This document shows positions 1,327 to 64,000 of a DNA stretch of 64,000 nt, one piece after another. The position numbers were made by a program, and so were the translations under genes. Source of the stretch: Tubiluchus corallicola. Its lineage: Eukaryota; Animalia; Priapulida. Position 1 is the stretch's first letter. Each line of letters opens with the position of its first letter. Below the pieces are notes generated by a model. That model did not search any database and had not been told where the DNA came from. It saw nothing but the letters and a program-made list of their open reading frames with translations. Where the stretch lies: NCBI GenBank assembly GCA_030141605.1, contig JAQGDQ010000006.1:1384687-1448686 (forward strand), in the 5' to 3' direction.

Positions 1327-9861
<8,535 letters not shown>

Positions 9862-42735: not shown

Positions 42736-43007
42736 CATGTGACAGAGATTTTTGTATTCGCGTTTCTCTTAAACGGGTATTATATTTTTTGCTATTACTT
42801 TGGTCATCTAAGTAATTGCTTAATTAGTGGTAAATATTAATTTCAGGATAAAATGTCTCCTGAATAGGAAGGAAATTATACGGTGTTCTCAGTTAATCTT
42901 GTGACTTCAGAAACTTTGAAAACAGAAAACTGTTTAATTTTATTAATCTAGACAAATAAATTTTGGACTACGTAAAAGCATATATAGTGCGATACTGTCT
43001 GTCTTCT

Positions 43008-56134
<13,127 letters not shown>

Positions 56135-57538
56135 GTGAGTTATCTGAATCCTGGGACTATTGAGGTGTGTTTAATCTACGTGTAGATGGGTAGAAGCGGG
56201 CCTAAATAAATTTTTCATTTATAATTTGTGTCTTTCCTTTATTTAAAGTATTTTAGGCTTTTAACTAAAAAGTAGTTTCAGTAACTTGGCAAAAATCGCC
56301 CAGCCTTTATCCTCCCTAGCTTTGTTTTTCTGCACAAATCAATCATTTTTCAGGCATATGATTACATTTATCTGTTTATTTATATCCCATTTGATTTTTG
56401 CTTTTTTCTCACCATTTTAGCACCATGTATGGTAAATAATTGTCTCTGTTTCATGTAATCTGATTTACTAGTTGTGTAGTTTGGTAGTCATCTAGAAGAA
56501 ATGGGAGGCAAAAATTATGATTTTGTGTGTTTTTTTGCTATTCAGTAGACGATATAGCCTCCTAATATTCATGACAGGACTCATTTTGCGTAAGCTGTGA
56601 TAGATGCTGACTTTAAGTGGCCCGTAATTTTGTGCTATGACCTTTATTGGCAGAGACCAATCAAAATTTTTACAAAAAATTCTGGTATCATGAAATCAAA
56701 GCTAAAGTAATAAGTGCAGTCTCAGAATTCGACTTTTGTGGTTTTGTGAATTCCTAGTGAGAAATTGTAAAATGTTTACGTGAGCGCTGTCACAAATTGG
56801 ATGAACACACAGACAAAACAGAAAGCGTAATGGCGGGTTACAAGACAACTCTTTATTCCCTAATGCGCATGTGTGCTTCAAGAGAGCTATATAAAGATTA
56901 CGTCATTACACTTTTCCCCTCTTAGAAAAAAATTTGCAATTCAAATTTTTCACAATTGCATAAGAAGTACAAAACTGCATCACAAAAACTACAGTTAGAA
57001 ACACCTATTATGAATTCAATTTAAATTCACTGCAAAAGAAAGGATTAAATGAAACTCTACCAAATGGTTAACATAATTGCAGCTAAATAGCCATGGAAGT
57101 ATGCCAACATGTAACTATCTACTATAACCCTAAACTCTTATTTTTTTTAGAATTCAACTAACCAACAAGACTGTTTACCGATAGCTAATCTACCAACTGC
57201 TATCAAATACTGATAGAAAAATATATGCCTGCCAAAACCATAAAAAACACAAATTCAACTTCAAAGTGTTTTCAATGCATATGAAAAGTCACACATTATT
57301 AATGAACAATTCAATCACACAGTTCATAAATTTAGTCTTTCGGTTGGTTTCCGTACACACAAAGAGCGACATACTTCTGAAGTACTAGATTGTTTGCTAC
57401 CACTGTCCATTTCAGTGTTCATTGGATTTGCGATAGTAGGTTGTTCCCGAACCTCTGTGACAGGAGCTGGTGGAATAACTGAACTAACTAAAGTAGATTG
57501 GTTAGTAGTTGCATATGAGGCATGATGTACATACCTGT

Positions 57539-58886
57539 TCAAGTCTTTGTGTAATGCTTTATGTGCACATACCTATCACCATCATTAGTTTTAACTTGGT
57601 AAGTCAGATGTCCTTTTTCCTCCACAATTTTGCCAGGAATCCACTTTTCTGGACTGCCACGAAAATTTTTAATATTAACCGATTCCCCTTCAGTGAAAAT
57701 TCGTTGTTTAACACCATGTTTATCATGCCGCTGTTGCTGCTTAATTTGCTTATCAAAAACATTCTGCTCAAGATGTGGTTTTAGCAATGAGAACCGAGTT
57801 CTCAGCTGTCTCTTTAAAAATAGTTCACAAGATGTTGCTTCAGTAACTGAATGAGGTGTACTCCTATACATGAGTAAGAAGTTAGCAAGCTTATGCTGCA
57901 CTCTCAAATTGCACTGAGACTTGTCAAGTCCTTGCTTCTTTAAAGCACGCTTTACAGTTTGAACAGCACGTTCTGCTGCACCATTTGATGCTGGATGATG
58001 AACTGGCGTCAAAAAGTGACAGATGTCATTCTTGCTTAAAAATGTTTTAAAAAGTTCTGATGTGAACTGGGGTCCATTGTCGGACACCAACATTTCTGGC
58101 AAGCCATAACTAGCAAACAATGTTCGAAGAGTCTCTATTCTCTCAGCAGTCATGCTTGACATAGGGAAGCATTCCAGCCACTTGGTGTAACTGTCAGTCA
58201 CAATAAGAAGATACTGTTTACCAGTCTCTGCAAAGTCAATATGCACCCGCTGCCATGGATGAGTGGCCCACTGCCATGGATGGAGTGGAGCTTTAGGTGG
58301 ATTATTCTGAACTGCTTGGCAGACTGAACATGAGTTTACCATCTGTTCAATGTCACGATCTAGATTTGACCACCAAAAATAGCCTCTCGCAAATGACTAT
58401 GTGCGTGAAATGCCAATGTTGTTCCATGAAGTTCTTCCAACATGCGTGGGCAGAGCACTTCTTGAATTATCACTCGCATGCCCCATAAAAGACAATTCTC
58501 ATCAAGAGAGAGTTCATTCTTTCTCTGAAAGTATGGGAAAAAGTTTGTTGTCTTTCACAGATTTTGGCCAACCATTCAACACAAAATCACGAACTTTGGA
58601 CAACACTGGATCATTCTGCGTAGCACGGCTAATGCATTTCTGCATGGTAGGTAATTCGTCTACGTAAGAAATTGTATGTACCATGTGATCCTCAAAATCT
58701 TTTGTCTCTGGTTTACTTCCAGCACTAGTCATAGGTAAACTCGACATTGTATCAACGTTGCAGTGGTCGGATGATCGACGATACTCAATGTCATACTGGT
58801 AGCCGGAAAGAATGACAGCCCAAAACTGTAAACGGGCTGCTGCCATTGTGGGTATTGCGGTTTTGGAATTGAAGATAGTCTTCAAA
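57539..58886 (-). pseudogene. Frameshifted RNase H/integrase region of the outer Gypsy pol
   Basis: AAARLQFWAVILSGYQYDIEYR, CSVCQ (HHCC), PWQRVHIDFA, SDNGPQF, HPASNGAAERAVQT (DDE) and YRSTPH motifs, split across frames. Confidence 0.88.
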
Positions 58887-61526
58887 GGAATTGTGAAAAA
58901 CCGGCTTCGCGTCAGACTTGAACTGCACTTCCAGCTCAAGGAGTACACCACGGTGGGTGCTGAGAGCTAGCCTGCGTTGACTCTTGGGTGCCAGCTTAAT
59001 CTGGTTGTAGGCATTAGCAAGGTCGATCTTCGTGTAGCCATATCCGCCTCCGAGCTTCTGCATCAGTTCCTCTGGGAGTGGCATCGGATGATGGTGGTCC
59101 TCTAGCTGATCATTGATGCCGACTGAGTAGTCACGACAGATCTGCAGTGATCTGCAGTTTGGCCTCCTGAGTGCCCGGAGTGTAAGCTTTACGAATCTGT
59201 ACCACTGGCGTTCCACTCAAGGAGTACACCACGGTGGGTGCTGAGAGCTAGGCTGCATTGACTCTCGGGTGCCAGCTTAATCTGGCTGTAGGCATTAGCA
59301 AGGTCGATCTTCGTGTAGCCATATCTGCCTCTTAGCTTCTGCATCAGTTCCTCTGGGAGTGGCATCGGATGACGGTGGTCCTCTAGCTGATCGTTGATGC
59401 TGACTGAGTAGTCACCACAGATCTGCAGTTTGGGCTCCTGAGTGCCTGGAGTGTAAGCTGTAGAAATCGGTACCACTGGCGTTCCGTTTTCGTTGAACTG
59501 GACTGACTTTCAGGCACCTTTGGCGATCCCTTCTTCGTAACCTTTAGCTAGGTCATCATGAAGAGCGAATGGAACCGGTCGTGCCTTGTGAAAAACCGGC
59601 TTCGCATCAGACTTGAACTTCAATTCCAGCTCGAAGTCCTTAAGACACCCCTATTCTTCTTTGAAGAGATCTGGGAACTCATCACACAGGTTGTGGCAAT
59701 CTCGTTGCAGGGAAGCATAAGACGTATCAGAGGTCTTCGGATGTGACGTTTTTACACCCTCTCTCTTGTCTTGACTCTCTATGCTCCTCAGTCCCAGAGC
59801 ATTGTCTACAGAAATTCCCAGAATCTGGAACTGTTTTGTCCCGGCAGGTTCAGGCAGGGATCTTGGTGATGGTGTAGGGAATTGAGCTTTGTTTACCAGT
59901 CTTTGGACCCTTTGTCTGGCCCGTGAAAGTTCCCAGCACTGGCAGGTCGTGCTTGCTGGCAGACTCGTAGTGATGTCTGACGTCATCCAGCTTTGGCTTT
60001 CCTAGTTGTTTCCAGACCAGCACTGAAACGAAATTTCCCATGGTTGCAGTGTCCATCTTGAACTGTTGGTCTTGGATGTTGACTTAGACATCCAAACTAG
60101 GAGTCTTCAGGAACTTCACCGAGGATCGCCTTACAAGCTCAGCCTTTGTGATTCTCCTCACGGACTTTCCAGATTTTTGGTCCCATTGCTGTCATTGCTT
60201 CTTCATGCAAACAGCCTCCAAATGTCCTTTCTTGTCACAGAAATGGCACTTGGCATCTTTGTAGGGACAGTCATTCACTTTGTGGGCCTTTCCACAATGG
60301 TAGCACTTTGTATCCATGTTTGTGGAATTTGACTGCTGATGGTTCCTTCGTTGACCCTTGTTCTGCTTCAGCTCGACTTTGTTGACGGGTCTGGTCTTGG
60401 AACCGTAGACAGTTTCCTTGGAAACCTTTGCCGCATCTTCAGTCTCGATAGCGACTTGGACAGCACTGGTGAAAGGCAGATCTTCATCCTTGATCTTGAA
60501 GATAGCTTTCAAGACAGTTTCGTTATTGTCAGAGCATATGAATCTCTGCCTCAGAGCTTCATCTTGTGGGTCTTGGATTGAAGAAAAGTCACAGGTAGCA
60601 GTGTCTTGGCATATGCGAGTTGCTAACTCCTGGAGAGTTTCGCCTGGCTTCCATTGCATGTCACTCCGGAACTTGAAATATTCTCACACAATGAAGAGTT
60701 TCGGGTCAAACTGTTCCTTTATAAAGTCTATAATCTCGTCTATCGTCAGTTTGTTGATATCCTTGGATGGAGACTGTTGAGTCGCTAGATTCGCCTGTTG
60801 TTTGTAGATGGCAGCAGTGTGATTTGTCAGGAAAACTTGAGCCTTGTGTTGGTCAGGCACTGCGTTTGCTGCCACGAAGGTACAAAATCTTGACCAGTAG
60901 TCAGGCCACAGTTCAGAAGTTGGACAAAAAGCAGCAAATGGTGGAATACCAGCTGTAAGTGCCGATACGAATGGAAAACGAGTGCTTCAACTGGCATCAT
61001 CTTCAAGAGTTCGAGGCTGTAGCAACCTCCTCATAGCGTCCATCTGTTCCCTATGGAGATCCATTTGTTCCTTATGCTGCTGCGTGAGGAACTTGATAAG
61101 TTCGCCCATCTGCTCTGCCATCATTGCTAGGATAAACAACTGTCCACTTAGTCACCAAGGATCCTGTCGACTGTGCCAAAATTTGTTGTGTTTTGTTTCT
61201 CTCGGAAGGCTCGTAGAGAAAAACCAGAAAACACGTCGTCAAGTTAAACTAGTTTATTATACGAGAATTCTACAACACGAAAGTATGAAGGAACATGAAA
61301 TGTTTACAGTAAATGTGATAATCTGGAAACGTGAAAGCGAGAAAGCGTATCTGAGAATACAAGGATACAAGAGAATAAACTTCAGCGGCCAGCTCCGCCT
61401 TACATATCAGTGCAAATCAACCATCTAGAAAGCACTACGCGCATCGCGTATAGAAGGTTCTCGAATCTTCTACAAGGTAAGAAGATTGTTCTACTATACT
61501 ATAGAATATTCCAGATCTCCACAACA
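58887..61526 (-). mobile_element. Second Gypsy element inserted in the outer element's gag; 5' LTR 61184-61526, gag-protease-partial RT, 3' half missing
   Basis: The LTR is followed by PBS TGGCACAGTCGACAGGAT (tRNA-Ser-like). gag has two CCHC knuckles (CYHCGKAHKVNDC, CHFCDKKGHLEAVC); protease MDTA; RT N-terminus ICGDY...KIDLANAY. Many stops and frameshifts. Confidence 0.88.
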
Positions 61527-62830
61527 GGTTTAGGTGAAAAATGATCCTGCAGAGCCTTAGTTATGTGGTCAAAAGTCTTCTCACTGGGTTTTGTAGGCGC
61601 CAAAACGTTTCTCAGTGTACCGCATGCTTTAGCGCCCAGTGAACTAAGCAACACTGCTTTCTGCTTATCAGCCTCTACAACACCATTAGCGATAAAAAAA
61701 CTGTTGTAACCTTTCCAATTTACATTCGAACGGCTCGTTCGACTCGTCGAATGTTCCAATTTTTCCTGTCAGTGACATTTTGTCAAAAACTCGTCGCCAT
61801 TTGTCAGAAATTGGATGAACACACAGATAAAACAGAAAACTAAACTCAAAACGTAATGGCGGGTTACAAGACAACCTTTATTCTCTAATGCGCGTGCGTG
61901 CTTCAAGAGAGCTATATAAAGATATAAAGATTACGTGATTACAAGCGCTACAGCCCTAAAACCGACAAGTCCTAGCCCTACAGATGTAGTTGTGACATAT
62001 TATTTCTGTAAAAATAATGTGTGGTATGAATTGTTCATACAGTATCAGCAGAATCTCTTAGTAGGATAGATGTTACACCTCTGGCCGATTTCCCGGGGGG
62101 GTGGGGATTTCCCCGGGGGGGTGGGGAAAAACACCCCTAAAAAAGTGCGAAAATCCGGGAAAACCCCTAAAAAAGTGTGAAAACCCGTGTGAAAGTGCGC
62201 ACGTGACCGAAATCGACGAAAAAGCGCGAAAAACAAAGAAAAACGAAGAAAAGGCGTGTGAAACGAGGTAAAAATTTTCCATTTTTTCCCTCCCGCATGG
62301 CTTCATTTGGATCGAATGACCTTGAACTCTAGGTCACGTGACCAAAGTTCATTGACCCCTGGCCCCTGGATGGCTTCTTTTTTTGACGCTCCATTTTAAA
62401 CCGCGCGAAAGCGCGAGAAAGCGCGAGAAAGTGTCTGAAAGCGCGTGAAAGCCCGTGAAAGCGCGCGAAAGCGTGTGAAAGTGTGTGAAACGAGGTAAAA
62501 AGCGCCTCAAAGGAAGAAAAAGGGAGAAGTGGAGTTCCCGCCGAGGACTAATTAGTGCTAATTGGCGCTAATTGGCGCTAATTGGGGAGCCCCTGCCACC
62601 CCTCCGCCGCGTGCAAACGTCCGTCCCGGGGGTCGGGGACACCCCCCCCCCTGCAACCCACCCCTCCGTCGCATGGAATCGTCCACTGCAGGCAATGAGG
62701 GAAATCTTTTTCCCGCCACTCGCGCAGTGCCGGCCCTTTTCCGCGACCACTTCTCTCTCTCGGGTGCCCTCCCTTTTCCGCGACCACTTCTCTCGCGGGT
62801 TTAGATGTGTGTGTGTGTGTGTGTGTGCGT

Positions 62831-62976
62831 GTGGAGATTTATTTCAAATGCCAAAGTTCGATAAATGCATTTTCACAAATCTTTTTTATTGATGGATTAC
62901 AGGTGTGGAGATTTATTTCAAACGCCAAAGTTCGATAAATGCATTTTCACAAATCTTTTTTTATTGATGGATTACA
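62831..62976. repeat. ~72-bp direct repeat x2, each carrying a minus-strand AATAAA downstream of the TBP-like ORF
   Basis: GTGGAGATTTATTTCAAA(T/C)GCCAAAGTTCGATAAATGCATTTTCACAAATCTTTTTTATTGATGGATTACA occurs twice. Confidence 0.9.
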
Positions 62977-63114
62977 AAAAATTTTTTTACATTTTTTATG
63001 CAAAATACATACGTGCTAAAACTAGATTATTATTATTATTATTATGGTGACATGATAGTTCTACATTTTACGTTTTTTTCGCAAATTACACAAATTACAA
63101 AAATTACAGTAAAA

Positions 63115-63696
63115 CTACACTAATGACGACGAGCGAGTACATGGATTGTCGTCGATGCGATACAGACAAACGTTATTGTTGTTAAAAACGAATTCGTTAA
63201 ATTTGCGGAAAACGCGAGAGAAATCCTCGACCTTTGTCCCGCCCATCATTATTATGCTTCCGGTGTGAAAAATGTTCAGAGTAATTTGCTCGCATTTGCA
63301 AGTTAGTTTGGGAAATAGTTCCACTTCGTAAAACACTTCTCTAAAAGAATGCGTCGAAGGACGAACGAGTTCTTCGTACAGTGCACCCAGTTTCAATCTG
63401 CAGCGAATTTTGGCTCTGGCGGTGATGGTGCGAATTGCGATCCCGTCGGCGGGCGTCAGTCTGAGACTTTTCGAGAGTTCTTCGATCGCATTGCGTAGTA
63501 CTTTTTCCTCCGAAAAACCGTTGGCCACCACGGAGCCGGAGGCAAAAATCATCAGCGTCCCGCCCAGTCGCTTTAGCAGAAGCATTTGCGGTTTCCTTTC
63601 GTAGCGTCTTCCGCCCGTTCTCCGCCGGAGTTCGTTCAGATCGAAGCGCTGCGAGAACGAAGCCGTGGCGACGATGTTGACCGTTTGGACTGACAC
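63115..63696 (-). CDS. Divergent TATA-box-binding protein-like protein (~193 aa core; open frame extends to 63945)
   Basis: Two TBP repeats: VNIVATA...FDLNEL...TLMIFASGSVVANG and IRTITA...LKLGAL...FYEVELFPKL...TLNIFHTGSIIMMGG. Intronless. There is no ATG before the domain; the likely start is GTG at 63696 (TAAC-GTG-TCA). Confidence 0.85.
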   Translation of the reverse strand: MSVQTVNIVATASFSQRFDLNELRRRTGGRRYERKPQMLLLKRLGGTLMIFASGSVVANGFSEEKVLRNAIEELSKSLRLTPADGIAIRTITARAKIRCRLKLGALYEELVRPSTHSFREVFYEVELFPKLTCKCEQITLNIFHTGSIIMMGGTKVEDFSRVFRKFNEFVFNNNNVCLYRIDDNPCTRSSSLV

Positions 63697-63998
63697 GTTA
63701 GAACGTAGTTGGCAATCGTTTCGGACGCCCGAATCGCTCTGCCTCGTCCGTTGCTCTGCCAACGTATGGCGGGCGGCGGGTGCTCGCTTTCCAGATCCTC
63801 TACGCGTATGACCATGCGATTTTTGGGGAGATGTTTTTTGACGAAATCGTACATCTCTGCTCCCTTGACGTAGGTGATCCTGCCTCTGGTGGTCTGTCGT
63901 AGAATGTTTTCCAATTCTGCGTACTCGATCATTCCCTCCTCCCACGAGATGCCGTGTATGTGTCTGATTAGGTAGTTGTAGGTGGATCGCTTGTGCTG
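63636..63998 (-). CDS. 5'-partial virus/Polinton-type accessory ORF (possible DEDDh/DnaQ-like exonuclease fold)
   Basis: The frame is open from the window edge: QHKRSTYNYLIRHIHGISWEEGMIEYAELENIL...ITYVKGAEMYDFV...VEDLE. I recognise the HG[IL]xWxxG and YVKGxE motifs, from memory, from a family seen in Mavericks and invertebrate dsDNA viruses. Confidence 0.6.
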   Translation of the reverse strand, partial: QHKRSTYNYLIRHIHGISWEEGMIEYAELENILRQTTRGRITYVKGAEMYDFVKKHLPKNRMVIRVEDLESEHPPPAIRWQSNGRGRAIRASETIANYVLTCQSKRSTSSPRLRSRSASI

Positions 63999-64000
63999 GG

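Follow-up and report, generated by a model that had tools for sequence, protein, structure and literature searches.

The window analysed here is a 64,000-nt stretch of the priapulid Tubiluchus corallicola (contig JAQGDQ010000006.1). Its host side is AT-rich and animal-like, with vasa-like helicase, zinc-finger, UBC and guanylate-cyclase genes, and its right end holds 1.9 kb of a mobile element bearing a TBP-like gene. The relevant features are as follows.

56054–56133, plus strand: last visible exon of the guanylate-cyclase gene (Pfam positions 31–57 of 183), followed by GT
56788–61943, minus strand: complete Gypsy LTR retrotransposon, separate from the Polinton-like element, with rve, RT and gag remnants
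56788–56910 and 61802–61943: Gypsy LTRs, with the 5-bp target-site duplication AGCGC
61944–62059: 116 bp of host DNA between Gypsy and the terminus, starting with the Gypsy target-site duplication
62054–62059, plus strand: TCTCTT, predicted left copy of a 6-bp target-site duplication, as read from the left flank sequence
62060–62065, plus strand: terminus AGTAGG, a five-of-six match to the Maverick end motif (AGT)2
62060–62800: GC- and CpG-rich non-coding terminal block with short tandem arrays, defined by composition and repeat scan
62801–63114, minus strand: 3' region of the TBP gene, rich in AT and holding a tandem duplication of 74 bp
63115–63696, minus strand: intronless mini-TBP of 193 codons and two repeats, identified by Pfam, PDB sequence search, structure model, fold searches and alignments
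63636–63998, minus strand: 3' part of a Polinton-associated gene of a family, here named C2, that has no annotation; cut by the window edge

A motif scan for the next cyclase exon found none before 62060, the continuation of the gene lying outside the window, and the element plausibly sits inside the intron that follows exon 56054–56133. The Gypsy retrotransposon, absent from the initial annotation, ends 116 bp to the left of the boundary at 62060.

At that boundary the element starts with AGTAGGATAG. The sharp compositional change reported there earlier is borne out by rises in GC and CpG and by a step in contig depth in public sequencing runs. GC content is 0.38 over positions 61944–62059 versus 0.53 over 62060–62175 and 0.545 over 62060–62800, and the CpG observed/expected ratio is 1.34 in the element versus 0.60 in host DNA (1–56000) and 0.61 in the adjoining Gypsy element. 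The non-coding block described as repeat-rich does carry tandem arrays, with units of 10, 20, 37 and 74 bp spread across 62087–62976, and the stretch 62060–62800 is likely part of the left TIR. Four minus-strand AATAAA words (from 62965, 62917, 62890 and 62843) lie in the 3' region of the TBP gene. The motif (AGT)2 is the end motif of vertebrate Mavericks (PMC8097293, section 7). Six 17-nt matches to the terminus in a viral-contig scan, none extending beyond 18 nt, look like chance.

Between 64 and 71% of sampled window words were present in four of the six public runs listed, from two studies. Contig depth in run X2 is 187 in the flank versus 24,886 at 63462, and in run X3 it moves from 11.4 to 2,297 across the 62060 boundary. 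The depth step is thus about 130- to 200-fold in X2 and X3, with high depth in X1 as well, depth being a different quantity from copy number; X2–X4 possibly represent the source sample itself. An X2 flank contig covering 61846–62087 without a single difference stops 28 nt inside the element, under a bridging rule of 31 nt, and no contig in the public runs has at least 31 nt on both sides of the junction. We infer that this contig end marks a break in a 31-mer graph, where many different flanks would meet the element at about 62058–62060; together with the depth step it fits a multi-copy element ending at 62060. Over about 740 nt the window copy departs from the main X1 contig at five letters and by one in-frame indel of 9 nt, which suggests a young family; minor X3 contigs with single-base gaps at 63502 and 63544 are broken copies. 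The window probably contains the left terminus of a Polinton/Maverick that is young and seemingly of high copy number, with the mini-TBP as its outermost gene.

The 63115–63999 minus-strand open reading frame matches PF00352 in two stretches (E 6.9e-22), and a structure model of the mini-TBP built from 73 sequences reaches a pLDDT of 93.9 and superimposes on solved cellular TBPs (PDB 3oc3, 1cdw, 1mp9) with TM scores of 0.69–0.77 at 19–25% identity. Pfam, model and fold search agree on the two-repeat saddle of the family, as had been read from the translation. Two overlapping intronless frames, also noted at that stage, are indeed both present; since the TBP fold is confined to 63118–63696, their true double-coding overlap shrinks to about 61 nt. 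In the alignment the mini-TBP keeps N7, F51, F128 and F143, amounting to three of the four intercalating phenylalanines and one of the two asparagines of the TBP DNA face rather than the full set. The first phenylalanine and the second asparagine are substituted, as they are in most of 70 relatives, and the contact roles of these residues are presumably those they have in TBPs generally. E124 and E126, aligning with the cellular pair, preserve the acidic C-terminal stirrup.

The closest protein by word search is P0001, the sole close match at 59% identity, and a HMMER search of 1.84 billion proteins returned 129 matches, these relatives being some 145–220 aa long. In a quick tree of 127 of the 129 matches plus the window protein (two multi-copy fusions were left out), the latter is placed in a group of 18 rows (SH-aLRT 87) made up of short TBPs in which a K/R-P-x-M motif replaces the first intercalating phenylalanine. 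A further tree, of 33 rows, has 15 cellular TBPs on one side of a branch with SH-aLRT 98 and, on the other, the window group together with 13 Polinton-linked TBPs. When three long-branch Polinton TBPs were added, these came out nearer the cellular sequences and the window group still stood with ten Polinton rows (92). An AU test rejects joining the window protein and P0001 to eight eukaryotic TBPs (p 0.006). The phylogeny called for by the initial annotation thus places the protein outside the cellular eukaryotic TBPs, in trees where none of the rows could be recognised as an animal TBP, TRF2 or TRF3. A retrocopy of a host TBP or TRF was rejected on the 19–25% identity, the AU result and the lack of nesting within the cellular eukaryotic TBPs of these trees.

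The tail of the second gene overlaps the start of the TBP fold. Nothing significant was found for it in Pfam or PHROGs, no homologue was found among longer proteins, the C2 family has no significant match in NCBIfam or PDB, and a two-sequence structure model reaches a pLDDT of 34; a D-x-E motif in the family might be read as exonuclease-like. An HMM of 25 neighbour proteins from TBP-bearing loci, on the other hand, picks this frame as its sole match among 1151 window frames (E 1.5e-6). The family adjoins the TBP gene in 15 of 18 loci that have both, in six of them upstream as in the window, and in a second abundant form of the element the C2 frame shows seven synonymous versus four other codon changes.

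Within the window, HMMs for the core cluster (pPolB, integrase, ATPase, protease, capsid) match the Gypsy integrase only, and with no Polinton core gene there, membership is indirect and comes through relatives. Thirteen proteins of the motif group served as seeds for a metagenome scan; of its 125 confirmed places the best 80 were used, and omission of four archaeal loci left 76. Among these best-80 loci a core gene occurs in 43 of the 76: in 18 of 21 loci of at least 5 kb (14 of them with three or more), in 11 of 18 at 3–5 kb and in 14 of 37 under 3 kb. Both window genes have relatives in loci that also carry pPolB, rve-chromo integrase, ATPase, protease, PLA2 and pX. Assignments of pPolB, integrase and protease were confirmed by Pfam for one representative each and that of the ATPase weakly; the capsid candidates gave one weak hexon match (E 0.58), and the neighbour genes called capsid below are ones that we take to be such. 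A scan seeded with the ATPase, and hence not biased towards TBP, found a TBP in three of seven loci, including both of those longer than 12 kb. Loci L001–L002 proved to be false matches in phage tail genes, and L009–L012 look like giant-virus loci. A first metagenome scan yielded no loci, viral-contig scans with the window TBP, the upstream frame, the closest TBP group and the ATPase gave no match, and no TIRs were found in the 20 longer relative loci checked; the closest proteins, P0001, P0002, P0004 and P0008, lie outside the fetched locus contexts. Core-gene linkage, C2 adjacency and the ATPase-seeded scan together mark both window genes as Polinton-associated. The grouping with Polinton-linked mini-TBPs and the C2 neighbour thus uphold, by an indirect route, the original proposal of a Polinton/Maverick-type element with its own TBP. 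The right end of the window is very likely the end of a Polinton, and its TBP belongs to a widespread, little-described group of Polinton mini-TBPs.

What such a protein might do can be gauged from the promoters of its relatives. The most enriched upstream 7-mers in 58 loci forming group A are CATAAAC, ATAAACG, TATAAAC and ATAAACA. Counted over TBP-carrying loci, many of them related to each other, the word YATAAAC, spotted by eye at first, stands 32–98 nt before 58 of 72 virion and integrase genes of these loci, versus none of 72 in antisense, a mean of 2.2 in shuffled sequence, and 7/69, 4/73 and 0/72 in shifted windows. It precedes one of 46 TBP genes in the same group. Ordinary TATA words, in turn, precede 14 of 50 TBP genes (4/45, 2/51 and 2/50 in control windows), and also 12 of the 72 virion genes. 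In group B (13 loci) a different word, WWGCAAA, again first seen by eye, gives 13 of 31 versus none of seven (p 0.07) in the corresponding count, and five non-archaeal loci (L036, L080, L083, L087, L088) belong to neither box group. Other basal factors are found next to the TBP gene: a TFIIB gene directly after it in L098, and PC4 directly before it in L080, L087 and L088. L097 has a TBP yet carries ordinary TATA words, and TATAAAC could be read by the host TBP too. The box-bearing loci are only about 22–33% identical to the window TBP, and in the window itself neither box precedes the TBP gene and YATAAAC is absent from the terminal block.

The start of the window gene sets it apart from these relatives. 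The fold opens at a GUG codon (63696–63694), and no AUG occurs in it before residue 38. Among 76 relatives, the 72 that could be evaluated all have an AUG 4–19 codons ahead of the first strand. Met38 was rejected as the start: a protein begun there would lack the first strand and helix, and the residue belongs to a motif in which it is nearly invariant. The abundant X1 contig (one other letter in 201 nt) and that of X3 share the window's codon-1 letters, making GUG a family trait; a low-depth copy, 85% alike, has a different codon 1 and, carrying changes of CpG type and a premature stop (codon 22), is uninformative on this point. Upstream, 101 codons of the TBP frame are free of stops (P 0.025 under element codon usage, 0.0005 under uniform usage), so that a start beyond 64000 is possible, and the GC pattern of these codons is shifted, as in a shadow frame. 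Any such extension would be unconstrained, given that the second abundant form has one synonymous versus nine other changes in this frame and the 7/4 ratio given above in the frame of the upstream gene. An AG at 63691–63690, a candidate splice acceptor, has no polypyrimidine tract, and inspection by eye of the upstream frame showed no canonical slippery heptamer. The non-AUG opening of the TBP fold is what is new in this lineage. From these letters a near-cognate start at GUG codon 1 may account for the protein, at somewhat less than an even chance; that the TBP is not made is a smaller possibility, a start beyond the window edge a slightly smaller one still, and a start via splicing or frameshift is unlikely. 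Expression may accordingly be throttled, begun beyond the window, or lost.

In the reading that we prefer, the host TBP would transcribe the element's TBP gene at the outset. The mini-TBP would probably be made at a low level, either from GUG codon 1 or from a start that lies past the window edge. With its altered DNA face and intact acidic stirrup it would then bind the element's own box and bring TFIIB and the host's Pol II to the late genes, namely those for capsid, ATPase, protease and integrase. That the mini-TBP serves as the element's own late-promoter factor in this lineage is, on present sequence evidence, somewhat more probable than the opposite, because the capsid and integrase genes of relatives share a private box that their TBP genes are without. 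Of the two roles first entertained, recognition of element promoters and interference with host transcription, the late boxes and the TFIIB and PC4 neighbours favour the former. A broader idea, put forward tentatively, is that transcription is organised in two tiers in many Polintons, which would bring their own modular, miniature pre-initiation kit (TBP and in some cases TFIIB or PC4) and use a late box specific to the lineage; here a non-AUG TBP start in the tail of the upstream gene would throttle the switch.

Several other explanations compete with this late-promoter role. The subfamily may no longer make its TBP, the start having been lost family-wide and the element spreading by means of host TBP or a rarer helper family; this minor possibility draws on the lack of an AUG before residue 38 in the window and in abundant contigs of two studies when every evaluable relative has one, on the stop in low-depth copies, and on the window's three single-base differences from the majority in the TBP frame, all of which alter amino acids. 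Loss sits poorly, however, with 193 open codons and a well-folding model, with an abundant X1 contig that spans the gene and departs from it by five letters and an in-frame 9-nt indel only, with P0001, which at 59% identity keeps the same residues and is likewise called from an internal Met, and with an upstream frame open far enough to allow a start beyond 64000. More doubtful is a role as decoy or repressor, in which the mini-TBP would sequester host TFIIB or sit on host promoters and so damp host or antiviral transcription. A kept stirrup with changed DNA-face residues would suit it, as low-level initiation would suit a toxic protein, but the private box before virion genes that is missing before TBP genes argues otherwise, and the TFIIB and PC4 genes beside TBP in other Polintons point to the building of a pre-initiation complex rather than its blocking.

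Host NFI and Oct-1 help replication at adenovirus ends, and a mini-TBP that bends DNA at the terminal repeats might likewise aid protein-primed replication or integration. The TBP gene does adjoin the terminus in the window, and the group-B word presumably resembles an octamer site. Relatives, however, keep their TBP among internal genes, the box tracks start codons at 32–98 nt, and the terminal block has no YATAAAC, which makes this role quite improbable. Equally improbable is that the right end of the window is no integrated Polinton at all, being instead a host TBP or TRF retrocopy in some other repeat, a misjoin or a contaminant. Such an error would explain why no core gene is visible and why no contig extends at least 31 nt past the junction in both directions, the runs that could bridge it being perhaps the source sample; it is opposed by the 19–25% identity to any solved cellular TBP and the AU rejection, by a second Polinton-associated gene and an AG(T)-like end, and by two studies in which this family occurs at high depth.

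Polintons, Mavericks and adintoviruses, as described in the available sections of PMC8097293 and PMC8502044, resemble the window element in a putative AG(T)-type end, a long non-coding terminal block, and an accessory region beside the core whose genes lack introns; their ends read (AGT)2 or (AG)3, that of the window element AGTAGG. TBP is not among vertebrate Mavericks' eight core genes as listed in PMC8097293. A TBP label does appear in the Fig. 5 legend of PMC8502044, for MELD (midsize polinton-like) viruses with an adintovirus-like PolB, and in the legends of Figs 5 and 6 of the preprint 10.1101/697771. Like the window element, MELD viruses thus have a TBP-like gene, which in the accessible text is a legend label in the section on non-animal datasets, given without clade, promoter or mechanism. 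The supplementary file of PMC8502044 contains neither TBP nor TATA. Term searches of the accessible text of 10.1101/2023.08.22.554363, 10.64898/2026.10.13.758929 and 10.1101/2022.05.25.493380 found neither word; TATA is absent from that of PMC8097293, and in that of PMC12220804 it is an author name. A literature search on Polinton TBPs, promoters and TFIIB, with figures, preprint supplements and most subscription papers outside its scope, returned legend labels only. The initial description of a little-described system was overstated, since TBP recurs in Polintons (the three of seven loci above) and was already labelled in the PMC8502044 legend.

A functional parallel lies elsewhere. The TBP mimic of herpesviruses (KSHV ORF24, PMC7498053) works in the way proposed for the mini-TBP, bringing host Pol II to late genes via a non-canonical TATA, the TATT box of beta- and gamma-herpesviruses. 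ORF24, however, carries a Pol II-binding domain at its N terminus and belongs to a set of six viral factors (PMC7498053), whereas the window protein is a bare core of about 190 aa with clear TBP sequence homology and no such domain. Membership in the herpesvirus family was rejected for this 193-aa core, and the likeness is one of function. TBPs have also been placed in mirusvirus-like elements (PMC10675990). With cellular TBP and TRF and with giant-virus TBPs (PF00352; BFVD matches) the mini-TBP shares the saddle, three of four intercalating phenylalanines and the acidic stirrup; it differs from them in K/R-P-x-M, common to the Polinton group, for the first phenylalanine, in a replaced second asparagine and in having no N-terminal domain. 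The giant viruses that carry a TBP for the most part encode a polymerase of their own.

Taken by itself, the window adds one more lineage and the question of a non-AUG start, the mechanism being drawn from relatives. Virions of vertebrate Mavericks have not been observed (PMC8097293, available text). A small TBP encoded by the element together with a matching box would, if true, provide a direct handle on how Polintons turn on their capsid genes, and expression of the TBP would mark active copies and the tissues in which they are active. A late-promoter role would extend the strategy of the herpesvirus TBP mimics to integrating viruses of 15–25 kb and supply natural TBP variants with altered specificity, and the two-tier programme, should it hold, would rank among the smallest viral take-overs of Pol II initiation.

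Several genes lie in the window to the left of the putative Polinton left end, together with a Gypsy element:

4302-6431, - strand: intronless ankyrin-repeat frame of 710 codons
35913-37784, + strand: vasa-like DEAD-box helicase gene that lacks introns and encodes several CCHC knuckles
42960-56133, + strand: membrane guanylate-cyclase-like host gene with HNOBA and cyclase exons
56788-61943: full-length Gypsy element with PBS and PPT and a 5-bp TSD, AGCGC

The ankyrin-repeat frame is nested between, and lies on the strand opposite to, two exons of a ubiquitin-conjugating-enzyme gene (2429-2668 and 8111-8389), and the guanylate-cyclase-like gene is truncated by the window within its catalytic domain. 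The LTRs of the Gypsy element have diverged (85% identity across 123 nt), and its pol is broken, with the RT region partly repeated.

The gene upstream of the mini-TBP gene occurs in the public sequencing run X1 in a second abundant form (depth 232, a contig depth and not a copy number), about 89% alike over window positions 63708-63845, where the changes are mostly synonymous. In the group-B Polintons, metagenome loci that use a WWGCAAA word, TBP is preceded by an unannotated gene of cluster C11 (L069, L071-L073, L081, L082, L091 and L092), the frame of which overlaps the TBP gene over about 300-400 nt in L073 and L091.

Seven contigs carrying Polinton-type ATPase genes (L093-L099) were found in GTDB bacterial MAGs, and are likely eukaryotic or viral contaminants of these. 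One contig so binned, L098, holds a Polinton that encodes protease, capsid, integrase, ATPase and pX besides TBP; in it (L098:4759-5873), the gene immediately after TBP is a TFIIB homologue, for which the Pfam match to PF00382 was above the cut-off (E 6.8e-7) and that to PF08271 slightly below it (E 2.9e-6). Immediately upstream of TBP, Polinton loci L080, L087 and L088 carry a homologue of the PC4/p15 coactivator (PF02229, E 3e-15 in L087).
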